A stretch of DNA of 18,433 nt from UHGV virus genome UHGV-0086921. One strand, given 5' to 3'. The notes beneath the pieces are model-generated. The model worked only from the letters and a program-made list of their open reading frames with translations, did not search any database and had not been told where the DNA came from. Position numbers and translations under genes: made by a program. The stretch comes from a virus. The first letter of the stretch is position 1, and the number at the start of each line of letters is the position of its first letter. Positions 904 through 17,942 of the stretch are shown here, piece after piece.

Positions 904-1656
904 TCATTTTCTCGGTGCAGGAATCTGTACTTCAGGCCAGCATTTGCAGTTCGGCAAACATCCGGCGTGTCCGGTCATACCGTCCAGCGTCGGCGGGTTA
1001 TCCCAGCGCACAAATTTATCTTTCATCTTGCGGTGAGAATCGCGCGTTCCGGCCCCCTCGATACGCCACCAGTAGCCCTCTGAGCCAACCGAAAGGGCTC
1101 TGGCCTGCGTCAGCGCGCCGGTAGCTCGTCCAATCTCTGTGCGGGCAATCAGTTGCGCCCTGCTGGCGGTCACGTCACCGGAGGCCATGATCATCTCGTA
1201 GAGTTCGTCCGGACGTTCACCAGTGATAACCGCCTGCATTGCGCGCTTTTGTATGTCCATCACGCGATCGGCTGCTTCCAGCGGCAGGGACTTCATCAGC
1301 TGAATCTGGCGGTACACGATATCCTGCGCCACCTGCCCGACGGGGGTATTACCCACCACATCGCGCAGGCCAGCGCCGATTTCCTCTGATACCGATTTCC
1401 ACTGATTCCATTCCTCCTGCTCGACCTGGGCAAACATCCTTCGCCCGACCTGCTCTGCCCAGTCGCTGATTACCTCGGAATAGTCCACCAGCGTTTTCGA
1501 AATGCTGTCAGCGCTGGCCTGTGAACCATCGTAGGTACCATCGACGATCTGCCCTATCTGGTTTGCTATCGCCAACAGGCTTTTTCGATACTGGATCTCC
1601 GAACGACGGCGGAGGGATGGTTTCAGGTTCATCCTCCTGCCACTGGGCCTTCGCAT
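904..1656 (-). CDS. Head morphogenesis protein (SPP1 gp7 / Mu F-like minor head protein)
   Basis: 250 aa ORF immediately downstream of the portal gene on the late strand; size and sequence character fit the MuF/gp7 family. Start is uncertain: the 1656 start has a GAGGA RBS but overlaps the portal 3' end by about 150 nt; alternatives are 1632 or 1437. Confidence 0.65.
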   Translation of the reverse strand: MRRPSGRRMNLKPSLRRRSEIQYRKSLLAIANQIGQIVDGTYDGSQASADSISKTLVDYSEVISDWAEQVGRRMFAQVEQEEWNQWKSVSEEIGAGLRDVVGNTPVGQVAQDIVYRQIQLMKSLPLEAADRVMDIQKRAMQAVITGERPDELYEMIMASGDVTASRAQLIARTEIGRATGALTQARALSVGSEGYWWRIEGAGTRDSHRKMKDKFVRWDNPPTLDGMTGHAGCLPNCKCWPEVQIPAPRK

Positions 1657-2977
1657 CTTCTATGTCCTCATCAGTGATAGAACCACCGATCCCAATCACA
1701 TCAGAAATGTTCCTGAGGTCGTTAAGCGCTGCTGCAGGCGTCATTCCGAGCTCACGAACGGCGGTACCGAGTGCGGTAACCACATTGTTCGCCATCGCTG
1801 CACGGTCCACGTCTGACATCTCCCAGAGCTTGTTAAACTCGAATGTAAAATCGTCAGGCAGTGGTTCACCGAACAGAGAGCGCCAGGAGATATCGAGCAG
1901 CCAGCGGATATGTCGGCGTAAGCGTCTCTCCTGCAGCGAGTTAACCCGGCTGTAGTAGTTTTCCAGATCGCCGTCGCCGGTGTTGAAACCTGCAGGGGAC
2001 TGCCCGAACAGACGGACGAGAGGAATTCCCGTCGCGCCGGAAACCTGCTCAGCAAAGCGCAGAAGGACATCAGCGATACCCGCAAACGTATAGCTGTGGG
2101 TTTCGAACTTATCCTTACCATCCATGATGGTCATGCCTTCGATGGTCTGGAACTGACGTATCATGTCCAGGTGCTTCATCAGCGCCTTTTCAAGGTCGCC
2201 TCCGGTAGCAAGAATCTTGCGCAGGTCTTCAATGCTGTAGGTCCGCAGATGCGCTTTGTGGATCAGCTGTGTGGTGCCGACGGTCGCAGTATCAAACGCC
2301 TCGATACGCTCGAAAATACGCTCCACGACAGACATCCCCCAGCCGTTTTCCGTCTGAGCCTGCTGGAAAGGAAGCGTATCGCCCTCCATGCGGATAACGC
2401 GGCTATGGTGGATCTTCCAGGGGGGAATCCCCTGCTGGTTCGTGATTACCTTGTAATATTTCGGTTTCCCAAAATCGGGACCGTAATCGGTAACGAGATC
2501 GTAATAACTCGGGTTAACCATCCAGCGGTCAAGGCTCATCACGCCCTTAAATTGCCCCTCTTTGATGCGATCCAGTTTAAGCGGGGAGGACATATCCTGC
2601 CCTTCAAGCAGGACCACCAGCACCGCGCCACCGTACAATCGTGACCATTTGAGGTTATCGTTAAGCCCATCCCATATAGCGAGCTCATCCCAGAAGGTTT
2701 CGAGCTCGCCCTTTTGTCCGGGCTTCAGCTTTGAGCTGATGTTAATCCCCTTGCGGGTCATATCATCGGCCATCGCATCCACACCGACACCAACGAGGAA
2801 CGATGAACGATACGCAAACTCCAGCATCACCCTGTTACGGCTGATGTACCCGGGCATGTACATTCCGCCCGTCTGTATGTTTCTGGTGTCGCTGCCAAGT
2901 TTGGCCGTGAAATTGTTGTACCCGTCAGCTGTCGCAACGGGCTTTTGTGCGCCGTTCTGGCGTTTCTTACGGGACAT
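1508..2977 (-). CDS. Portal protein
   Basis: About 490 aa ORF directly after the terminase large subunit, the conserved portal position. Preferred start is the internal ATG (MSRKKRQNG...) with a GGAG RBS, just after the TerL stop; the track ORF extends to 3010. Confidence 0.7.
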   Translation of the reverse strand: MSRKKRQNGAQKPVATADGYNNFTAKLGSDTRNIQTGGMYMPGYISRNRVMLEFAYRSSFLVGVGVDAMADDMTRKGINISSKLKPGQKGELETFWDELAIWDGLNDNLKWSRLYGGAVLVVLLEGQDMSSPLKLDRIKEGQFKGVMSLDRWMVNPSYYDLVTDYGPDFGKPKYYKVITNQQGIPPWKIHHSRVIRMEGDTLPFQQAQTENGWGMSVVERIFERIEAFDTATVGTTQLIHKAHLRTYSIEDLRKILATGGDLEKALMKHLDMIRQFQTIEGMTIMDGKDKFETHSYTFAGIADVLLRFAEQVSGATGIPLVRLFGQSPAGFNTGDGDLENYYSRVNSLQERRLRRHIRWLLDISWRSLFGEPLPDDFTFEFNKLWEMSDVDRAAMANNVVTALGTAVRELGMTPAAALNDLRNISDVIGIGGSITDEDIEDAKAQWQEDEPETIPPPSFGDPVSKKPVGDSKPDRADRRWYLRWFTGQR

Positions 2978-2978
2978 G

Positions 2979-4604
2979 TCACGCTCCGGCCAGTTTGGCC
3001 CAATTATCAAGAGAGGAATCCATCGGCGCGTAGTTAATCATCACGGCGTCAGCGAGGTTCGGCGACTTGGTGCCGTCAGGCTGTTTATCAACAACGATTT
3101 TCCCCACACCGTTAATGGAATAGGTCGGTTGCGACAGCTCGATGATGAGTTTGTCTTTGCTCGCCATGGCGCTGCTGATTGAGATAATTTCGTCCGGGTT
3201 GTAGGCCATTCCCTCAACCACGGCGCGATAGGTGTTCTGGAAAAGCTTGCGTAATTGCCACCAGCTCTGGGCCTTGGCGTTAGCAAAGAAGTCCTTGTTC
3301 AGGCGGGCGGCCTGTCCGTTGTCGCCGCGCACCGCTTCATCGTCCGGATCAAATACCGCGCCGCTACCACGAAACGGTGTGGCGAGTATTGACGGTCGGC
3401 GCGCTGCGTTACGCAGTTCGTTGATGGCGCGCGCATCGCCGCGAACGCCAGCACCCAGGCCGTCCTCGTCGAAGCGAAACTCTTCGAGGTTGTCCTGTTC
3501 GCAAAAGCCGAAGACCTTCTCAACAGACTGGTAAATGTCGCTGCCAACGCCGGACCATTCACGCACGTTCTCCAGAAGGAAGCCGTGACGGGTCGAAAAG
3601 GCGTTTTTGTCCCGGCCTTCGTCGGCGACGTCCATCGCGCCCAGTCGCTTGCCCGTTGGCTGAATACCAAGTTTGATATGCGCGTCGACGGCAGCCTGTA
3701 CCCAATCGGACGGGATCAGGACGCCTTCCGCAGATGCGCTGTAGTTCAGGTCAAGTTCCTGCGCCACCACCACCGGATTGTCGATTTTCTCGCACTCCCT
3801 GCGATACCACTCTTCATCCTTGCGCGGGTCATCTCGCCAGTGGAACGTGAATACTGGTATTTTTCCGCCGTGGCGCTTCTGCGCGAACGGGTTCGCCATG
3901 CCATTAACCGAGCTCAGGTCAATACGGCAACGGGTGGTTTGCGACAGCGCCGCATCAATCAACAGAGGACGCTGGAGGAATGCAGCTTCATCCACCAGGT
4001 AGAGCGTGGTACGGTCACCACGTCCGATATTGTCGCCAGCCTCGCCTTTGATAACCGCGCCAGTATCTGGAAACTCAACGCGCATATAAGGCGCATGCTT
4101 CTTCTCGTCCCACGAGCCACGAAACTCGATGGGCAGTGTTTCCACGAACTTTCGCGCCTTCCAGAACAGCGCCTTCGGGTCACCGGTGCTGTCGACGTAT
4201 TCCTCTTTACGGGAGCCGAAACCGATAACCATTTCTTTGTTGAAGAGGCAGAGCGAACAGGCCAGCCCGATCGCCGTCCAGCTGAGCCCCATTTCGCGGC
4301 TCTTTTCGGTGATGCCGTTCTCCAGTCGTTCGCGCCGCTCCATGATCCAGTGAATCCACTCTTCCTGTTTCGGGAACAGCAGAAAAGGGATGGTGACCGG
4401 CAGGCCATAATCGATGTTACGCGGGTCAGTAGTCATACCCCAGTCGATGATGAACTGTGCCGGGTTGGTGCGGTAAAACTGCTTTAGCGCTGGCAGCATT
4501 TCAGGGTTCTGGCGAATGCGCTGTAAGCGCTCCATCCGCCATTCAAAAACCATCTGGTAATCAGGGTTTCTGAAATCGAATTCAAACGGGAGAGGCATGA
4601 TCAC
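2979..4604 (-). CDS. Terminase large subunit
   Basis: 541 aa ORF between the small terminase and portal genes. It starts with GTG and overlaps the TerS stop by 4 nt (GTGA), indicating translational coupling. Size and position are typical of TerL (ATPase plus nuclease). Confidence 0.8.
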
Positions 4605-5230
4605 CCCATCATCTTGCGGTAAATCTCTGCGGCCTGATCTGCGGTGAGGTTGGTCGTCTCGGTCTTGATCGGGCCGCCATCCGCACCAGTCAGTTCGGTT
4701 TTCTTAGGTGCTTCCCACCCCTGCAACTCAGCCAACTGCTTTATTGCTGCCTTCGGGTCGTGCATCTTCAGTTTGATACCATCTTTCCCTGAGATCAGCT
4801 CTGATACTGCGCTCATCGCGTCAGGGTCCTGAAGGGAAGAATCCTTGAAGCTCCAGACGGCTTGATAGACAGGATTTCCTTCTTCATCCTCCCCCACGAT
4901 GCTGTTACTAAACTCGGCGATATCGGCGATAGAAGCACGGCCCATTTTAGACAAACGCTTAAGAGCTTCATCGCGGGTCATAATGGCCTCGTCGATGATT
5001 TCACCTTGAACAGACTTAATGAACGCCTGAACGTCGCAATTTGTCGCAATTACGTGCGCAGCTTTGCGGAGGTTGTCCCCCTTCGCTTTCCCTCCTGCTT
5101 TGCGGTAAGCCTCGGTCTGATTCTTGCCCTTGATAATGGCTAAGCTGAATCTTTTCTGGAGCGGAGTCAGCACATCGAAAAGGCGCTGCTGTTCCGCCGT
5201 TAGCTTTTTCGATGCCATGATGGTTTCCAT
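4601..5230 (-). CDS. Terminase small subunit
   Basis: 209 aa ORF immediately upstream of and overlapping TerL; N-terminal helix-rich region ([28 protein letters not shown]...) is typical of small terminase DNA-binding domains. The true start may be the second ATG (MASKK...). Confidence 0.65.
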
Positions 5231-5284
5231 AAGTTGTTAACATTATCGAAGCCCCTCATAGAGAAGGGCTCCTGTAATGCCCGG

Positions 5285-6016
5285 TCAGTCCTTAATGAAC
5301 TCTTCCGTGTGAATGCCGATTTCACCAGTAAGCAGCTGAGCACTGGTTGCGTCGATGCTCACTGATGTATGAGGGTTGGCGTTTTCGTTAAGCCATTTGA
5401 TTACCGGATTCACTACGTCTTCGAAGGAGGAGCTGCGAGCCTTATTAACGTCGGAAACGTGGCAGTCACCAAGGCATGGGCCTTTATCGGAAAAACAGTT
5501 AACGCAGGAATGATCGTGGATTTTCTCAGGGACGCTAAAAGTCTCATGAAAACCATGGCCTTCTTGGTACCAGCGCCAACAAGCGCGATATTCATAATCG
5601 ACCGCCTCGTCATGCAACTGCCAAAGCAGATCAGGATTGCTAATGAGCTCATGGCAGATTTTAGGCTGATAGCCTTCCCCAATGGCCTGCTTGATATATT
5701 CAATCATGGCCTCGCGTGAGGGTGGCTTAGTCTGCTCTTCCTGAGTCCCGTCAGTTTCATCATCATATTCAAACACCGGGAAGCAACGCACACTGTCAAC
5801 GAGGTGGTCACGAAAGATACGGGTTTCCAGCGAATCGGGCGCTGTAAACAACTCAATATTTACTCCGGAACCGAGGTTAATTTTCGGTTTATCTTTCGAG
5901 TACCCCTCAAACAACAGGCTTTCGACCAGATTGTGGGCGTTGATAATGCCGGGAAGCTTGCCGGAAGGCTGAGAAAGCTGCAGAAGCTGAACTTTCCAAT
6001 ACTTGATAACTTTCAT
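5285..6016 (-). CDS. Hypothetical Cys/His-rich protein (orphan moron between lysis and packaging modules)
   Basis: 244 aa from the internal ATG (MKVIKYWKVQ...), which has an AAGGA RBS about 8 nt upstream. C-terminal half carries clustered Cys/His (CHELISNPD...HDHSCVNCFSDKGPCLGDCH). I recognise no family. Confidence 0.5.
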   Translation of the reverse strand: MKVIKYWKVQLLQLSQPSGKLPGIINAHNLVESLLFEGYSKDKPKINLGSGVNIELFTAPDSLETRIFRDHLVDSVRCFPVFEYDDETDGTQEEQTKPPSREAMIEYIKQAIGEGYQPKICHELISNPDLLWQLHDEAVDYEYRACWRWYQEGHGFHETFSVPEKIHDHSCVNCFSDKGPCLGDCHVSDVNKARSSSFEDVVNPVIKWLNENANPHTSVSIDATSAQLLTGEIGIHTEEFIKD

Positions 6017-6139
6017 GCTGTTTTCCTTTAGATGTGAGCCTGTCGTACAGGAACGCCGCCCGAGAGAGGTCGCCACCTTTAACGGCGTTCCTCAGGCTCA
6101 CGACTGAAAGACTCTCGATGGTTTGCGTGTACGATACGC

Positions 6140-6170
6140 ATAAAAAAGCCCCGCTATTGCGAGGCTCTTG
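6140..6170 (-). terminator. Putative intrinsic terminator downstream of the lysis cassette
   Basis: On the minus strand, a GCCTCGC...GCGGGGC hairpin followed by TTTTTT, overlapping the end of the Rz1 reading frame. Confidence 0.4.
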
Positions 6171-6417
6171 ATGATTCGATTTTCCTGATTGCTGCCTTAT
6201 CCAGATTGCACTGCCCCAGCGCCGTGTAGAGCTGAGCGTTTAACTCCAGACTTGCCTGCCACGTGAACGGAACCGTCATTCCGGGGATCGGCGTGTCAGC
6301 TGTCAGGTCAGCGCTTATCGGCACCACCGGGGCCGGAACGTAAACTGTTTTGGTATTCCCGCAGGCTGTCAGCAGCGGCAGCAGGAACAAGCTGGTTAGC
6401 ACACGGATCGCCTTCAA
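6154..6417 (-). CDS. Rz1: o-spanin (Rz1-like outer-membrane lipoprotein), overlapped architecture
   Basis: Alternate frame overlapping the 3' part of Rz encodes a lipoprotein signal with lipobox (…[22 protein letters not shown]…) followed by a Pro-rich segment. Start is probably a TTG (giving [19 protein letters not shown]); the first in-frame ATG would put the start at 6477. Confidence 0.55.
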
Positions 6418-6685
6418 GCGCCTGCCTGATGTAGACAATGCGTGTCTCGCCTTTTTTGGCCAGTTCGTTCTTTGCATTCTGGGTAGCCTGTGAGATGTCA
6501 CGGATGAGGTTCATCGTGGTGATCACGTTTCTGGTGATCGCCTCCGATGTGTCTGCCCTGACCGTCGCCTTGTCACGCTGTTCTTTGTAGGCGATGGCGT
6601 TATCACGGTAATGATTAACAGCCCATGACAGGCAGACGATGATGCAGATAACCAGAGCGGAGATAATCGCGGTGACTCTGCTCAT
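6308..6685 (-). CDS. Rz: i-spanin (Rz)
   Basis: N-terminus [31 protein letters not shown] matches lambda Rz as I recall it (transmembrane anchor), then diverges. It overlaps the endolysin stop by 4 nt. Confidence 0.8.
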
Positions 6686-7158
6686 ACCTCAATCTCTCTG
6701 ACCGTTCCGCCAGCTTCTTTGAATTTTGCAATCAGGCTGTCAGCCTTATGCTCGAACTGACCATAACCAGCGCCCGGCAGTGAAGCCCAGATATTGCTGC
6801 AACGGTCGATAGCCTGACGAATATCACCGCGATCAATCATCGGCAAAGCGCCACGTTCCTTAATCTGCTGCAATGCCACAGCGTCCTGGCTTTTCGGAGA
6901 GAAATCTTTCAGGCCAAGTTGCTTACGGTAGGCATCCCACCAACGGGAAAGAAGCTGGTAACGTCCGGCTGCTGTTGATTTGAGTTTTGGGTTTAGCGTG
7001 ACAAGTTTGCGAGGGTGATCTGAGTAATCAGTGAATAGCTCTCCGCCAACAATGACGTCATAACCATGATTTCTGGTTTTCTGTCGTCCGTTATCTGTTC
7101 CCTCTGACCACGCCAGCATATCTAGGAACGCCTTACGTTGATTATTGATTTCCACCAT
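6682..7158 (-). CDS. R: Endolysin R (lytic transglycosylase)
   Basis: 158 aa [51 protein letters not shown]..., essentially the lambda R protein as I recall it. Confidence 0.95.
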
Positions 7159-7465
7159 CTTCTACTCCGGCTTTTTTAGCAGCGAAGCGTTTGATAAGCG
7201 AACCAATCGAGTCAGTACCGATGTAGCCGATGAACACGCTCGTTATATAAGCGAGATTGCTACTTAGTCCGGCGAAGTCGAGAAGGTCACGAATGAACCA
7301 GGCGATAATGGCGCACATCGTTGCGTCGATTACTGTTTTTGTAAACGCACCACCATTATATCTGCCGCGAAGGTACGCCATTGCAAACGCAAGGATTGCC
7401 CCGATGCCTTGTTCCTTTGCCGCGAGAATGGCGGCTAACAGGTCATTTTTTTCTGGCATCTTCAT
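7142..7465 (-). CDS. S: Holin S (class I holin with dual-start motif)
   Basis: 107 aa [39 protein letters not shown]..., near-identical to lambda S105/S107 including the Met-Lys-Met dual start. Confidence 0.95.
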
Positions 7466-8302
7466 GTCTTACCCCCAATAAGGGGACTTGCTCTATTTAA
7501 TTAGGAATAAGGTCGATTACTGATAGAACAAATCCAGGCTACTGTGTTTAGTAATCAGATTTGTTCGTGACCGATATGCACGGGCAAAACGGCAGGATGT
7601 TGTTAGCGCAACCTCTTGCCACCCGCTTTCACGAAGGTCATGTGTAGAAGGCAGAAGCGTAACTATCACTAATGAATTCAGGCCAGACAGTGGCTACGGC
7701 TCAGTTTGGGTTGTGCTGTTGCTGGGCGGCGATGACGCCTGTACGCATTTGGTGATCCGGTTCTGCTTCCGGTATTCGCTTAATTCAGCACAACGGAAAG
7801 AGCATTTATGGCTCGCATCGCGGGAAAAAACCCACGGTAGAGAGTCGAACTCTACAAATACTCTTACCTGCTGTGCGCTCCGTTTCGTGGAGCTAACGGC
7901 AACGACATTACCGGATTATTCGCTGCACCCTTGAGGGATTTACTAAGGCGACATGCCCGTTGTTACCCACGAATGAAAGCTCTATCTTTCGAACAGACTT
8001 TGCGCGCAAGAACGACGATAAATCATAAAGCTCTCATTGGTGGGTGCCCATTATTAATCACAGCGGGCCACTGCGCCGAATTTGTTCACAAGGAATCGGA
8101 AGACCTTGCTGACTTACAGGCTATTACGCCGCCATCAGAACAACATCATCGTTTGCATTTATCTTTGTGGTCAGTTTCTAAAAACCCGCAAAGTCGCCAA
8201 CTCTGACGAAAACTATCGTTGTGCTGCCACAACGATAAGAGCACTCGGTGCATTTAAGCCAAGCCCCATAAGGGAGAATGCTCTTACCTGTTGTGCAAAC
8301 GC

Positions 8303-8331
8303 AAAAAGCCCCGAGCTATTAACTCAGGGCT
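8303..8331 (-). terminator. tR'-like terminator of the short pR' leader transcript
   Basis: Minus-strand hairpin AGCCCTGAG...CTCGGGGCT followed by TTTTT, about 40-60 nt downstream of the pR' start. It is followed by the CACAACAGGTAAGAGCATT motif that follows tR' in lambda. Confidence 0.5.
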
Positions 8332-8366
8332 TTATTTAACGAGTGCATTTATCCATCGTTGAGTCA

Positions 8367-8395
8367 AATTTACCCAACTTTATTCAATAAGTCAA
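8367..8395 (-). promoter_or_regulatory. Late promoter pR' (Q-dependent antitermination site)
   Basis: Minus strand reads TTGACT, 17 bp spacer, TAAATT, just downstream of the Q stop. This matches my memory of lambda pR' (TTGACTTATTGAATAAA.TTGGGTAAATTTGACTCAACGATGG). Confidence 0.6.
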
Positions 8396-8437
8396 TATCA
8401 TGCCGTTAATATGTTGCCATCCGTGGCAATCATGCTG

Positions 8438-9061
8438 CTAACGTGTGACCGCATTCAAAATATTGTCTGCGATTGACTCTTCCTTGTGGCATTGCACCAC
8501 CAGAGCGTCATACAGCGGCTTAACAGTGCGTGACCAGGTGGGTTGGGTAAGGTTTGGGATTAGCATCGTCACAGCGCGATATGCTGCGCTTGCTGGCATC
8601 CTTGAATAGCCGACGCCTTTGCATCTTCCGCACTCTTTCTCGACAACTCTCCCCCACTGCTCTGTTTTGGCTATATCAACCGCACGGCCTGTACCGTGGC
8701 AATCTCTGCATCTTGCGCCCGGCGTCGCGGCACTACGGCAATAATCCGCATAAGCGAATGTTGCGAGCACTTGCAGTACCTTTGCCTTAGTATTTCCTTC
8801 AAGTTTTGCAACGCCACGGTATTTCCCCGATACCTTGTGTGCAAATTGCATCAGATAGTTGATAGCCTTTTGTTTGTCGTTCTGGCTGAGTTCATGCTTA
8901 CCGCAGAATGCAGCCATTCCGAATCCGGCTTGTGATTGCGCCATCCCCATAGCAGCCATCACATCAGTACCGGAAAGAGAGTCAGAAGCCGTAGCCCGTG
9001 GTGAGTCGCTCATCATCGGGCTTTTTGGCGAATGAAATTTAGCTACGCTTTCGAGTCTCAT
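8438..9061 (-). CDS. Q: Late-gene antiterminator Q
   Basis: 207 aa MRLESVAKFHSPKSPMMSDSPRATASDSLSGTDVMAAMGMAQSQAGFGMAAFCGKHELS..., essentially lambda Q as I recall it. Confidence 0.95.
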   Translation of the reverse strand: MRLESVAKFHSPKSPMMSDSPRATASDSLSGTDVMAAMGMAQSQAGFGMAAFCGKHELSQNDKQKAINYLMQFAHKVSGKYRGVAKLEGNTKAKVLQVLATFAYADYCRSAATPGARCRDCHGTGRAVDIAKTEQWGRVVEKECGRCKGVGYSRMPASAAYRAVTMLIPNLTQPTWSRTVKPLYDALVVQCHKEESIADNILNAVTR

Positions 9062-10956: not shown

Positions 10957-11483
10957 GCCGCCCTCCTGACGCCCTGCCCGATCGCCATCAATGCCGCTTT
11001 GGATACGGTAGTAAACATCCGTCGAGGACTGATGAACGGTCGCCAAATCAGCAGCATGGAGCCTTTGCTGTTTCCCTTCTTCTCCAGCCCTGTCGATGGT
11101 TCGATAAAATTAATCCGTCCATCAGTGATAATGCGAACTTCGTCGACACTCTCCAGAGCCTTGCTGAACCATCCGACAGACATATCCTCTGGCACAAGCA
11201 TCACTACCGTCTGTCGCTGTTGTATGCACTGCTCAGCTGCTTTTTCCACCCACGGCCTGATATTGCTGTACGGTGGGTTATTCCAGATTGCACCGTGACT
11301 TACCCACTCAGAATTGAGCGCGTCGTCGGCCTCAGTTAGCCAGTGAGCGCACAGAGCATTTTTGTCGCTCGCTGCCGAATCCAGCCAGAATCCAAACTCA
11401 ATATCCAGTGCATCAAAAAGCCAGAGCGGCGTTTGCCAGCAGTCTCTAACTTCTTTTGGTGTTTCTGATTTATGCTTAATCAT
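10953..11483 (-). CDS. Phage DNA N6-adenine methyltransferase (Dam-type orphan MTase)
   Basis: 176 aa with the NPPY catalytic motif ([11 protein letters not shown]) and the N-terminal [12 protein letters not shown] pattern typical of the phage Dam family. Confidence 0.8.
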
Positions 11484-12007
11484 TCACCCCTCGCATATTG
11501 TCCGTGATATTTGTTGATAGCCTCACTGGCAACCAAACCAGCAAGCTCAAGATCTTCATAGAACCCAAAATGCAACCGGCCAAAATCTGTGCGCACTTGA
11601 ACGGCCCATTTATTTTTTTGCTTGTTCCATAAAACATTTTTTATTCCAGAACGGCTATTGCACTTAGTTTTCTGATTTCGGCTGTTTGCTATCCGGCTTG
11701 CCTCCCTAAGATTTTTTGGGGAATTGTCCAGCCTGTTTCCGTTAATATGGTCAATATTTTTCAATGGCATTCTTTTGTTGTGCAGCGCAAAAACAACTAC
11801 GTGAACAAACATCTGAATGCCTGCAAAACACACCTGTCTATACCCAGATCCATTTATCGATGTTTTAATTTCATCTCCGGCCCGGTGGCTGTGGTTGGGG
11901 TGTTTTAGCGAGTCCTTTTTGTATCTGACTGTATCTCCGTCTAAATACAGATAATCCTCAATAAGCCGATACCTATCTGACGCTGGCGTATTTGATTTGA
12001 TAGTCAT
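11480..12007 (-). CDS. HNH endonuclease with AP2-like DNA-binding domain (homing-endonuclease type)
   Basis: 176 aa from the internal ATG (MTIKSNTPASDRYRL...); HNH motif IDHINGNRLDNSPKNLREASRIANSRN followed by an AP2-like segment (NKWAVQVRTDFGRLHFGFYEDLELAGLVASEAINKYHG). ATGA overlap with the ninB stop. Confidence 0.75.
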   Translation of the reverse strand: MTIKSNTPASDRYRLIEDYLYLDGDTVRYKKDSLKHPNHSHRAGDEIKTSINGSGYRQVCFAGIQMFVHVVVFALHNKRMPLKNIDHINGNRLDNSPKNLREASRIANSRNQKTKCNSRSGIKNVLWNKQKNKWAVQVRTDFGRLHFGFYEDLELAGLVASEAINKYHGQYARGE

Positions 12008-12444
12008 GCAGCCCGATCTCCCCATCGCGCTTTCCATTCGAGAGCCAGTCGCGCTTCGTCTGACCACTTAACGCCACGCTCTGTACCGAATGCCTGTATA
12101 AGCTCTAATAGCTCCGCAAATTCGCTTACACGCATCCTGCTGGTTGACTGGCCTATTACCACAAAGCCATTCCCGGCAAGGTTAGGAACAACATCCTGCT
12201 GCTTTAATGCTGCGGTAAACACACACTTCCAGCTTTCTGCATCCAGCCAGCGCCCATGCCATTCAACCTGACGAGAGACGTCACCAAGGCAAGCCCAAAG
12301 CTTTCGATTCTGGTCTAAGCTGCGGTTGCGTTCCTGAATGGTTACTACGATTGGTTTGGTTGGGTCTGGAAGAATTTGCTGTACCGCGTGAATAGCGTTT
12401 TGCTGATGTGCTGGAGATCGAATTTCAAAGGTTAGTTTTTTCAT
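12004..12444 (-). CDS. ninB: NinB (Orf recombination mediator)
   Basis: 146 aa from MKKLTFEIRSPAHQQNAIHAVQQILPDPTKPIVVTIQERNRSLDQNRKLWACLGDVSRQVEWHGRWLDAESWK..., essentially lambda NinB as I recall it. Confidence 0.9.
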   Translation of the reverse strand: MKKLTFEIRSPAHQQNAIHAVQQILPDPTKPIVVTIQERNRSLDQNRKLWACLGDVSRQVEWHGRWLDAESWKCVFTAALKQQDVVPNLAGNGFVVIGQSTSRMRVSEFAELLELIQAFGTERGVKWSDEARLALEWKARWGDRAA

Positions 12445-15735: not shown

Positions 15736-16383
15736 ATGAAAACGATGCATGAAATTATCGGGGAAAGGATCAAGTCCCTTAGAGAAGCTAAAGGACTTAG
15801 CCAGGCTCAATTGGCCAAGCTTTGCGGCTGGGCTGCGCCTTCACGCCTGGGGAACTACGAGTTAGGAACAAGAAAGGTTAGCGCGGATGACGCGCTGGTT
15901 CTTGGGGCGGCACTCGGCGTATCTCCGGCAAAAATAATGTTTGGCGAGGATTCAGACGCCGTATTTCGCCAATATGAATACCCGTTATTTTCTTCAGTGC
16001 AGGCCGGGCCATTTTCGGAGGTGGGAAGCTACACAGCCAGCGATGCAAAGGCATGGGTCCCAACGACCACAAAAGCCAGCGAAAAAGCTTTCTGGCTTGA
16101 GGTGAAGGGGCATTCAATGACGGCGCCTCAGGGGGTTCGTCCAAGTTTTCCGGAAGGCATGCTGATACTCGTTGATCCGGCTGAGCCGGTAGAGTCTGGG
16201 GATTTCTGCGTGGCTTCTGCAAATGGTGATTCAGAGGCAACGTTCAAGAAGTATGAGAAGGATGCAGGGGTTAGTTACCTGGTACCTTTAAACCCGGCAT
16301 ATAGAACACTGGATTGCGACCATAGCTGCCGCATCATAGGCAAGGTAGTTAAGGCGCAGTGGCCTGAAGAGACGTTTGGCTGA
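15736..16383 (+). CDS. cI: CI prophage repressor (LexA-like S24 autopeptidase family)
   Basis: 215 aa with an N-terminal HTH ([12 protein letters not shown]...) and C-terminal S24 features (VKGHSMTAP... Ser nucleophile, and a later Lys in IGKVVK). An in-frame alternative start at 15745 has an AAGGG RBS. Confidence 0.9.
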
Positions 16384-16533
16384 TCGGCAAGGTGTTCTGG
16401 TCGGCGCATAGCTGGTGAAAAAATTATTTAATGCGGTGTATTGGCTGATTGTAACCCCATGTAACATCTTGCCGTCACCATTTCGGTGGTTAGATTTTTA
16501 ATAAAAAAAAACAAATGTATAGCAAGGTTTTTT

Positions 16534-17013
16534 ATGGATAAAATTAATTACCCACCCCTGTTTGAGCCAGGGTTCCATGACATGGATGAAGCTGGATTAA
16601 AATCGTATTGTGTCGATTGCTTTCCTTCATCATCCAGGCGAGGCATGCTATACTGTAATTTTATACAGCTACTCGAATCTATTCGAGAATTATCTGCTCA
16701 ATATGGCTGTTTTACAGAAATATGGGTTGATGGTTCATACACCACGTCTAAACCAGAGCCTGATGATATTGATATTTTGTTGGTATGTGACTATAGCAAT
16801 ATAAACTCAATACCTGTCATGCTTCGGGGCCGCGTCGATAATTTGCTTGACCGAAACTACATCAAACAAAACTACAAAATTGATGTCCTACTACTCATGA
16901 AGAATTTAGATGACCCTAACTATGATTATGAGTACTGGCGTAGCTACTGGCGCGGTTGGTTTGGTTTTGATCGCAGTGAAAACCCGAAAGGGTTAGTGAG
17001 GATTTTTTTATGA
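16534..17013 (+). CDS. Predicted minimal nucleotidyltransferase-fold protein (Pol-beta superfamily-like), cargo gene A
   Basis: 159 aa from MDKINYPPLF... (the track ORF starts at an upstream GTG in an A/T run, less likely). Motif EIWVDGSYTTSKPEPDDIDILLV fits the NTase GS-x(9-13)-DxD signature. AAGG RBS; AT-rich codon usage unlike the surrounding phage genes. Confidence 0.55.
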   Translation: MDKINYPPLFEPGFHDMDEAGLKSYCVDCFPSSSRRGMLYCNFIQLLESIRELSAQYGCFTEIWVDGSYTTSKPEPDDIDILLVCDYSNINSIPVMLRGRVDNLLDRNYIKQNYKIDVLLLMKNLDDPNYDYEYWRSYWRGWFGFDRSENPKGLVRIFL

Positions 17014-17942
17014 ATGATAAATCAATGTTTAAAAATTGCGATAAACGCATTGATTTCATTCAAAAAGAAGTCGATGCAATGAAGCAAAACAAAACCAGGT
17101 CCTTTGCTGACATGCTTCTTTATCGCTCCATGGATTCTCATCTGAGCGATTTGAAGGCCGAAAAATTAAAGCAAGATAGTCGGCACCCACTTATCGATTT
17201 TTTTGAGCTGCGGCTGAAAGGCTCTGAGGTTGACTTTGGCTCTATTCCTTTAGAGCTGCTTGGGGCTATTTCAACAAATCTTGCAGCGCTAATACAAAGA
17301 GCAACACACAAAATTGCCTCAGGCAAGGACTCAAAAAAAGTTCCCTACGACGTGAAAAGCTCCTTAAACCTCAGGCTGGCTGATTTATCCCCTGGGTCTA
17401 CAAAATTGGGCGTCACCTTCTCTACAGGAATAGCAGAATTAGTAGAAACAGTACCCAGCAAGGCTGTAAAAGGCATATTCGATTTGTTGTTAAGCGATGA
17501 CGACAACAACTTCATGAATCACGTCGCTGAAATTGGATACAATTCCACTGTAAGCCTTAAGAGAATCGTAGAGGAATGCGATAAACACAACTTAACATTT
17601 GATGCAAGTTGGACCGGTCCATTTAGTAATGGCACCAAGGTGGCAACTATTGACTCCAATAAAATTAAGTACTTGGTGAGTAGACTTACATCAACCATTT
17701 CATCCCCTCCCATTACTGAAACGGTTACAGGCGAACTGGTCGTTCTATCCAAATATGGGAAGCTGGAGCTTGATGTTGGTGGTGAACATTTAAAGGCTTC
17801 CTATCCGATTGAAATGCTAGATTTAATACAAAAAAAACACAAGGTCGGACAGATTGTTTCTCTTTTAGTGGAGACTACTGAGATTCACAATGATCGCATA
17901 GGTCTGTACCGTAAAAACCATCTTGTTAAATCGGTTCTTTAA
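17010..17942 (+). CDS. Hypothetical protein (310 aa), cargo gene B, translationally coupled to gene A
   Basis: Its start overlaps the gene A stop (ATGA at 17010-17013). No transmembrane segments are apparent and I recognise no family. AT-rich. Followed by a strong terminator. Confidence 0.6.
   Translation: MNDKSMFKNCDKRIDFIQKEVDAMKQNKTRSFADMLLYRSMDSHLSDLKAEKLKQDSRHPLIDFFELRLKGSEVDFGSIPLELLGAISTNLAALIQRATHKIASGKDSKKVPYDVKSSLNLRLADLSPGSTKLGVTFSTGIAELVETVPSKAVKGIFDLLLSDDDNNFMNHVAEIGYNSTVSLKRIVEECDKHNLTFDASWTGPFSNGTKVATIDSNKIKYLVSRLTSTISSPPITETVTGELVVLSKYGKLELDVGGEHLKASYPIEMLDLIQKKHKVGQIVSLLVETTEIHNDRIGLYRKNHLVKSVL

Follow-up and report, generated by a model that had tools for sequence, protein, structure and literature searches.

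The region that follows the lysis genes of lambdoid phages is already known to be variable and to hold genes such as rha and kilA, and in phage phi80 a hairpin of this region has been annotated, although only as a putative terminator. Genes inserted between others have a well-known model in the morons ("more DNA") of HK97 and HK022, open reading frames (ORFs) with their own promoter and terminator that lie between genes adjacent in related phages. HNH endonucleases of the type of HK97 gp74 adjoin the terminase genes. At the level of RNA, the intergenic R sites of T7 and the leader of lambda N are sensitive to RNase III, and cleavage there frees a ribosome-binding site. Here we describe a gene of the post-lysis region in the virus genome UHGV-0086921. 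The stretch analysed, 18,433 nucleotides (nt), is called the window; it is a lambdoid prophage with its late genes on the minus strand. The gene, an ORF at positions 5285-6016 (minus strand) that we call the cargo ORF, lies between the Rz/Rz1 spanin genes, which end the lysis cassette (6154-6685, minus strand; Rz itself 6308-6685), and the gene of the small terminase subunit (TerS; 4601-5230, minus strand), as an earlier interpretation made from the letters of the window (the sequence-only reading) had correctly placed it. That interpretation saw an orphan Cys/His-rich gene with the architecture of a classic moron. We find a slot, located between the spanin and the terminase genes, which has a conserved element on each side and whose cargo is interchangeable.

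The position of the slot is constant. In 30 of 30 IMG/VR loci that encode the family, the gene comes directly after Rz, even though the Rz proteins are from 29 to 100% identical to that of the window, and at least five different types of TerS and large terminase subunit (TerL) follow it; counting portals as well, the terminase and portal types found with the family gene are unrelated to one another and number at least five. The closest copies, in E. coli, are 99.6% identical; their match to the window extends from one hairpin to the other (5240-6169), and the terminase beside them is a different one. An empty junction can be seen in E. coli EJN001, where 76 nt, containing neither leader nor cargo nor 3' hairpin, separate Rz1 from a related TerS. 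The cargo is therefore extra DNA, and the earlier proposal of an accessory gene at a variable junction of lysis and packaging genes is supported.

The content of the slot, on the other hand, varies. An 18-nt pattern taken from the leader that precedes the gene (see below) is present in at least 120 viral contigs, about three quarters of which have a first ORF unrelated to any of the modules (N, M, Z and C, described below) of the cargo protein. Such unrelated cargo includes a 486-amino acid (aa) GT2-like protein, small membrane proteins, ORFs of 77-111 aa and larger mosaic proteins, nearly none of which has a match in Pfam or PADLOC. In phi80 the leader stands before rha and before a second gene, in HK620 before hkbK (KilA-N), and it is also found in HK639, HK106, the mEp phages and several phages of Klebsiella, Enterobacter and Salmonella. 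Among 5,426 complete E. coli genomes the leader occurs in 727 (about 13%) and the ORF in 11. Among species representatives of Enterobacterales, 39 carry a leader confirmed by the covariance model described below; about 39 chance matches to the pattern, returned from unrelated phyla by a genome-wide scan, were rejected by the same model.

Some phages carry more than one leader. In phi80 (JX871397) two leaders lie in series, at 2534-2660 and 4128-4238 of locus L157, each directly 5' of its own gene (rha and PHI80_66), and paired leaders are also present at loci L037, L063, L087, L095, L188, L200 and L215. This serial arrangement suggests arrays of cassettes. The second phi80 leader overlaps PHI80_65, a "hypothetical protein" on the opposite strand which is probably a mis-annotation.

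The element on the 5' side starts with T1, a hairpin of the intrinsic-terminator type with a U-run (6139-6169, minus strand) that overlaps the stop codon of the Rz1-frame ORF, which is embedded in Rz on the same strand and ends at 6154. The hairpin proper (6144-6169) consists of an 11-bp stem and a 4-nt loop, followed by the U-run, with a folding free energy (dG) of -21.7 kcal/mol and a z-score of -4.3. Its assignment is based on this energy and on its phi80 homologue, which is the hairpin annotated as a putative terminator; a simple terminator scanner missed it, probably because the maximal stem consumes part of the T-run. T1 varies in sequence between loci, where a U-run is usual, and is absent from some of them. 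Homology between loci with different types of Rz starts exactly at the 5' edge of the T1 stem, and the approximately 150 nt from T1 to the ATG are better conserved than the ORF, remaining recognisable where protein identity has fallen to 28-38%.

After T1 comes a structured leader of about 110-125 nt (6022-6146, minus strand), which scores 104 bits with a covariance model and is composed of two hairpins, H2 (6124-6140) and H3 (6024-6111). The lower stem of H3 spans 9 bp (GUGAGCCUG / CAGGCUCAC) and is separated from an upper stem of about 10 bp by an internal loop of 6 nt, all of them on the 3' side. Beneath the lower stem, the first bases of the Shine-Dalgarno sequence are part of a CUUU.AG / CU.AAAG helix, with CUUU / AAAG at its base. 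This sequence (AAGGA, 6024-6028) lies 7 nt 5' of the cargo ATG (6016-6014), and throughout the slot the leader sets the ribosome-binding site at a fixed distance from the start codon of each cargo. The covariance model was built from 37 leaders and matched 105 sites; phi80 leaders score 77-118 bits and that of HK620 scores 79 bits.

The pairing is supported by compensatory change. In the leader alignment 94% of the cells are standard pairs, compared with 26-49% when the partners are slid; changes on both sides were found at 12 pairs, in 138 cells, and none of 500 shuffles reached any of the observed measures. Covariation is located mostly in the upper stem of H3, and one example pair appears as GC in 46 cases, UG in 23, CG in 10, AU in 5 and UA in 5. 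In an arm-swap test of folding energy the mean was -11.3 kcal/mol for each variant with its own arm and -7.7 kcal/mol with the arms of other variants. Since the frequent G-U pairs are allowed on the sense strand only, the element folds as RNA. RNAalifold on a MAFFT alignment recovered only part of the upper stem, as indels mis-register the sequences, and for this reason the arm-swap test and the covariance-model alignment were used instead. Searched at permissive thresholds, Rfam has no family for H3 or for the leader; the only matches were sub-threshold ones of the terminator end (6139-6200) to unrelated small RNA and leader models.

The element on the 3' side is a compound hairpin (5239-5281, minus strand) made of GGCATTACAG, a covarying GC-rich stem-loop and CGATAATG, after which comes the ribosome-binding site of TerS. 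It was defined by folding (7 bp, a 2x2 loop and 10 bp; dG -24.6 kcal/mol, z-score -5.2) and by covariation, its inner stem being formed by at least six different self-complementary sequences. The hairpin recurs after several kinds of single-gene cargo and after rha in phi80 (GGCATTACAG...TGATAATGC). No U-tract follows it, in the window or in any variant, and it matches no Rfam family at the permissive thresholds. Both hairpins that the sequence-only reading had noticed beside the gene are thus real. Their interpretation as parts of a classic moron is not supported: as conserved, covarying boundaries they are common to cargo of many unrelated kinds, and the gene runs in the direction of the late operon.

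The same hairpins could be mainly recombination sites or flanks acting at the level of DNA, used for the exchange of cassettes, the cargo ORF being just the last gene recombined in. Homology between phages does break exactly at both of them, many unrelated genes occupy the slot, some phages have two leaders, and boundaries set by structure and not by sequence recall the attC sites of integrons. We nevertheless regard this explanation as unlikely, given that the G-U pairs tolerated only on the sense strand point to RNA, that the leader carries a ribosome-binding site placed at fixed distance from each cargo start, and that the slot has no linked recombinase gene. Conserved flanks can recombine by homology without any hairpin, and the two roles are compatible.

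Returning to the reading of the frames as RNA elements of a slot gene, the gene itself can be considered. The cargo ORF begins with ATG on the minus strand and has 243 codons and a TGA stop; an in-frame extension to a GTG at 6076 was rejected, as it lies inside the leader hairpin that unrelated cargo genes have too, at variable spacing. The protein contains 7 Cys and 11 His, and the Cys/His peptide quoted by the sequence-only reading corresponds to residues 153-186. The protein is no orphan. Among 5.8 billion proteins searched, 277 clusters of relatives were found (at 90% identity), a number that is a lower bound; all of them are labelled hypothetical, prophages of Klebsiella and E. coli predominate, and lengths range from 198 to 289 aa. 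The earlier statement that the protein could be placed in no family is correct for annotated families: searches with the ORF against Pfam (E <= 10), NCBIfam and PADLOC found none, and Pfam searches with 125 aligned relatives gave scattered noise only, with no family and no HNH. In PADLOC-DB no defence model matches the cargo ORF at E <= 10, and PADLOC has no match either for one relative composed of N and C or for nine other cargo proteins of the slot. The statement fails for PHROG 16206, the sole family matched by the whole ORF (E = 1.3e-59; residues 1-243 against profile positions 3-137). In addition, the C module matches phrog_4621 (E = 2e-6). PHROG 16206 and PHROG 4621 are both phage families without an assigned function.

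Selection on the ORF was estimated by pairwise Nei-Gojobori comparison with diverged loci (dS, synonymous divergence, 0.6-1.3). The ratio of non-synonymous to synonymous divergence (dN/dS) is 0.15-0.24 in the N module, 0.18-0.31 in M, 0.10-0.20 in Z where this module is present, and 0.15-0.27 in C, indicating that the whole reading frame is under purifying selection. Between modules of one and the same gene pair dS can differ up to 20-fold, which denotes recombination inside the gene, that is, mosaicism. Judged by its sequence, the cargo ORF is a genuine, selected accessory gene.

The mosaicism reflects a modular architecture in the order N-M-Z-C. The N module (residues 1-83; 5768-6016, minus strand) is constant in the family and is modelled as a five-stranded small beta-barrel. 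It is followed by an acidic linker and the helical M module (residues 84-160; 5537-5767), an optional cassette, and by a second optional cassette, the Cys/His knuckle Z (residues 161-190; 5447-5536). The C module (residues 191-243; 5288-5446) is predicted to form a long helix and then three short strands, and ends in EEFIKD-COOH. In the family alignment whole blocks are cleanly there or missing, and N and C alone are constant. The profile of PHROG 16206 consists of N and C only (137 positions), to which the protein of the window adds about 105 residues in the form of the M and Z cassettes. In Salmonella and Serratia, minimal proteins made of just N and C (130-140 aa) are common.

An exhaustive search of 1.84 billion representative proteins with a hidden Markov model returned 416 hits, most of them on part of the profile only, so that the modules are present in at least 416 clusters (50% identity level). 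When the segments of the window protein were mapped onto the 149 listed hits, C was found in 132 of them, nearly always at the extreme C-terminus and ending in ..EF-x-KD, and in 25 it stands alone (51-70 aa). Among the same 149 hits N was found in 31, M in 15 and Z in 12, and the combinations include N-C, N-x-C, Z-C, M-C and N-M-x-C. C is thus the C-terminus of many other small phage proteins, and the stand-alone C ORF is conserved across many phyla; in an environmental phage it occurs as two tandem copies after DnaB. M stands alone as gp53 of Enterobacter phage Tyrion. The alignments and the distribution of the modules indicate that the middle ones are swapped in and out by in-frame recombination. 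The cargo gene is a clear case of domain-level shuffling in small phage proteins, with each module also found alone elsewhere.

In epsilon15-like Salmonella prophages, the interval from TerL to portal encodes, on the opposite strand, an 82-aa protein composed of Z and C (AAIOMJ010000003.1; 4001-4249 of locus L164), which is a typical moron placement. It is listed in 607 blocks of the sequence collection.

The Cys/His cluster that the sequence-only reading had noticed is present in the ORF, as an optional cassette and not as a constant feature of the family. Its motif (H167-D-H169-x-C171-x-N-C174-F-x3-G-x-C181-x-G-x-C185) is almost invariant in 34 distinct variants, although the regular expression that collected these variants partly fixed the conserved positions, and the trailing His186 varies. 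The four conserved Cys are in the CxxC...CxxxC arrangement of a Cys4 zinc knuckle. The Z module is absent from many intact members of the family, and in some members the knuckle is broken (C to S or R) or the protein is truncated.

AlphaFold (AF2), run on a composite alignment of 125 sequences, modelled N as a five-stranded beta domain with predicted local distance difference test (pLDDT) values of 86-97 and C with values of 86-96, while M and Z were modelled poorly (pLDDT 45-77; 52-77 in the linker and M, 45-56 in Z). With a shallow alignment of 25 sequences the model was unusable (pLDDT 42); the larger alignment rescued N and C only. Foldseek found no significant fold match in the PDB (best E >= 2) or in BFVD (E >= 0.12), and sequence-profile searches of the PDB with the family profile and with a profile of the C domain gave nothing below E = 0.19. 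The protein has an isoelectric point (pI) of 4.98 and a net charge of -17, and for stand-alone C domains the median pI is 5.0. The sequence of the window protein shows neither a signal peptide nor a transmembrane segment. It is predicted to be an acidic protein of the cytoplasm.

The transcription of the slot can be considered from its surroundings. No minus-strand promoter of the sigma-70 type was found in 4500-7600 by a simple consensus scan, and no -35/-10 pair is present on reading the conserved leader. Given this absence, together with the co-orientation of the gene with the late genes and the terminator that precedes it, transcription only as a late gene, antiterminated by Q, is most likely. 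T1 would stop any polymerase that lacks the Q modification, and the cargo would be read by the Q-antiterminated polymerase. H3 would then limit or time the translation of the cargo until the hairpin is opened or processed. The best structural analogy for H3 is a signal for RNase III, since the architecture of such signals (about two helix turns, an internal loop, conserved structure) is present in H3 and also in the 3' hairpin; by this analogy, processing of the RNase III type could free the ribosome-binding site. The conserved frames may double as homology arms for the exchange of cargo between phages. In the protein, N and C, being constant, would serve as a shared scaffold or anchor, and specificity for the target would come from the exchangeable cassettes between them; the Z knuckle would act as a small binding module stabilised by zinc. 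With constant N and C, exchangeable cassettes, acidic charge, no enzymatic signature and accessory positions in several types of phage, a protein-binding accessory factor is the most economical interpretation, and a plausible role is in interaction with the host, in host takeover or in counter-defence, neither as an enzyme nor as a component of packaging. Taking all its parts together (a gene of a framed slot, late and dependent on Q, with translation limited by H3 and with an accessory protein-binding product), we favour this reading with guarded confidence.

Several points weigh against it. The 5' arm of the lower stem of H3 belonged to the search pattern, so its invariance is in part ascertainment, and the alignment was fitted to the model. 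The lower stem hardly varies, nor does the pairing with the Shine-Dalgarno sequence, so that sequestration of the ribosome-binding site fits the data and is not proven by covariation; likewise, processing by RNase III is an analogy only. A weak, atypical or activator-dependent promoter inside the leader could be missed by a simple consensus scan. Regarding the protein, it has no annotated homologue, no significant fold match and no PADLOC match, and the protein-binding or counter-defence role is drawn only from acidity, modularity, rapid exchange of cassettes and genomic placement. Finally, anti-defence genes are more typically expressed early, and stand-alone C-domain genes do occur in the early regions of other phages.

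A wider interpretation, which we put forward tentatively, is that the late operons of the lambdoid phages of Enterobacterales contain a new, RNA-framed cassette system and that proteins of the N...C type form a new class of modular effectors, in which a constant beta-barrel and a constant C-terminal anchor present exchangeable small modules, the zinc knuckle among them, to different host proteins, for instance abortive-infection sensors of late phage proteins. In that case the frames would both control late, dosed expression and serve as portable flanks for the exchange of cassettes.

The classic moron remains to be weighed, that is, a gene transcribed independently from the prophage and giving a phenotype of lysogenic conversion, superinfection exclusion or defence. 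The moron architecture seen by the sequence-only reading stands as far as the extra DNA, relative to the empty Rz1-TerS junction, and the hairpins on both sides of the gene are concerned, and it is in line with the membrane proteins and the GT2-like gene held by the slots of other phages and with the related Z-C gene that lies on the opposite strand within the structural operon of Salmonella prophages. It does not stand in other respects: the simple scan found no sigma-70-like promoter from T1 to the ATG, the cargo is on the strand of the late operon, part of its ribosome-binding site is base-paired within a very stable hairpin, and the 3' hairpin has no U-tract. Since, moreover, PADLOC gives no match and the protein lacks a signal peptide or transmembrane segment, we think it improbable that the gene works in this way.

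A nuclease of the HNH or His-Me type associated with the terminase, or another packaging accessory, after the example of HK97 gp74, would make the Cys/His cluster a metal site. The gene is indeed immediately upstream of the terminase genes, and the His-Asp-His motif and four Cys within 19 residues are nearly invariant where present and under purifying selection. But no HNH profile of Pfam matches the cargo ORF or any of the 125 family members, while the same Pfam library detects HNH_3 in another ORF of the window (11480-12067); there is no fold match and the beta-beta-alpha-metal fold was not found in the protein; and the module, of only about 25 residues and with a low-confidence model, is missing from many intact members. 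The sequence-only reading had proposed a search for a zinc-binding or HNH-like fold, and this is how that search ended. The gene is also found with at least five unrelated terminase and portal types and is lacking in a phage whose TerS is closely related, and the C and Z-C modules occur far from the terminase genes in other phages. A nuclease or packaging factor is accordingly very improbable. Hardly more credible is a decaying ORF in which the mosaic protein is recombinational debris and only the flanking RNA elements are selected, since the variable length (198-289 aa) with cassettes that come and go, the broken knuckles and truncations of some members, the poor models of M and Z and a leader conserved more than the ORF are set against dN/dS values of 0.1-0.3 in each of the modules, measured at substantial dS, hundreds of variants that are intact and in frame, N and C domains that fold confidently, and a C domain conserved as a stand-alone ORF across many phyla.

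The late genes of the window among which the framed slot gene lies are, all on the minus strand, Q (8438-9061; Pfam Antiterm), holin (7142-7465), lysozyme (6682-7158), the spanin genes, the cargo ORF, TerS (Pfam Terminase_2, E = 3e-16), TerL (2979-4604) and portal (1508-3010). Near-identical Rz/Rz1 genes are labelled "lysis protein" or "Rz1-like LysC" in RefSeq. The early region of the window is 96-97% identical to HK620, HK022 and mEpX1, and this homology ends at about 6570. Between Q and holin there is an intergenic region of approximately 970 nt (7466-8437, minus strand) with weak, sub-threshold Rfam hits resembling transfer-messenger RNA (E = 0.013-0.025), especially at 8075-8178. ARAGORN finds no transfer RNA (tRNA) in 7466-8437, where the related Klebsiella phage GZ7 has a tRNA-Asn and a tRNA-Arg, and the element may be a degenerate tRNA remnant. 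ARAGORN also reported a tRNA-Ala (anticodon CGC) at 15934-16016 (plus strand), which lies wholly within the ORF of the cI repressor and is most likely a false positive.

Other genes outside the slot deserve mention. The HNH_3 ORF (11480-12067, minus strand; Pfam E = 5.5e-11) is free-standing in the nin region, between ninB and an ORF resembling a DNA adenine methylase, and is probably a homing endonuclease. Adjoining cI (15736-16383), two co-oriented genes (16486-17942, plus strand) match both parts of PDC-M63, a candidate defence system of PADLOC: a 175-aa protein (Pfam DUF6932) matches PDC-M63A with E = 2e-41, and a 310-aa protein of the immunity region matches PDC-M63B with E = 7e-45. This PDC-M63-like pair of the immunity region is at the position that rexAB has in lambda. 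In the E. coli prophages of loci L001-L003, past an alternative terminase, the gene in the position of portal carries the annotation "anti-CBASS protein Acb1 family protein", and a NUDIX-domain protein comes next; the label probably denotes a fused or mis-named head-morphogenesis region.

In the literature on morons, hotspots, rha, Rz1 and terminase neither the N-M-Z-C family nor the leader and 3' hairpin as a cassette frame is described; older papers on HK620, phi80 and rha, and older subscription papers in general, fall outside this coverage. The variation after the lysis genes, long treated as moron miscellany, is organised, as a slot framed by two RNA elements conserved in structure. The covariance model of the leader gives a handle for harvesting late-expressed accessory genes, which are candidates for functions in counter-defence, host takeover and exclusion. 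If the leader is a translational switch dependent on processing, it would add a new level of regulation to a phage operon that is among the best studied.

The comparison with described systems can now be made feature by feature. Like HK97 gp74, the cargo gene is situated just upstream of the terminase genes and its product is provided with His and Cys residues; unlike gp74, it has no HNH profile match and no beta-beta-alpha-Me fold, and its Cys/His module is optional. With the morons of HK97 and HK022 it shares being extra DNA, a single ORF bounded by hairpins, highly variable between relatives and with a GC content slightly below that of its flanks, and it differs from them in that no promoter was found, the terminator is upstream and not downstream, and the boundaries are conserved across cargo genes. 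The slot resembles the cassettes of integrons in its promoterless single genes, sometimes in series, with boundaries conserved more in structure than in sequence, but it has no integrase and no attC or core-site motifs, its boundaries fold as RNA and not as single-stranded DNA, and the leader holds a ribosome-binding site. H3 is comparable to the R sites of T7 and to the leader of lambda N in having a lower stem, an asymmetric loop and an upper stem (about 20 bp), in its intercistronic location and in a base that overlaps the Shine-Dalgarno sequence, and although there is no sequence similarity, the likeness may extend to the way in which they work. The closest correspondence is with rha of phi80 and P22 and with hkbK of HK620, which lie in the same slot, directly after Rz/Rz1, and behind the same T1 and leader. 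These genes encode proteins of the DNA-binding families Rha and KilA-N, unrelated to the cargo protein of the window, so what they have in common with it is the frame and not the cargo.

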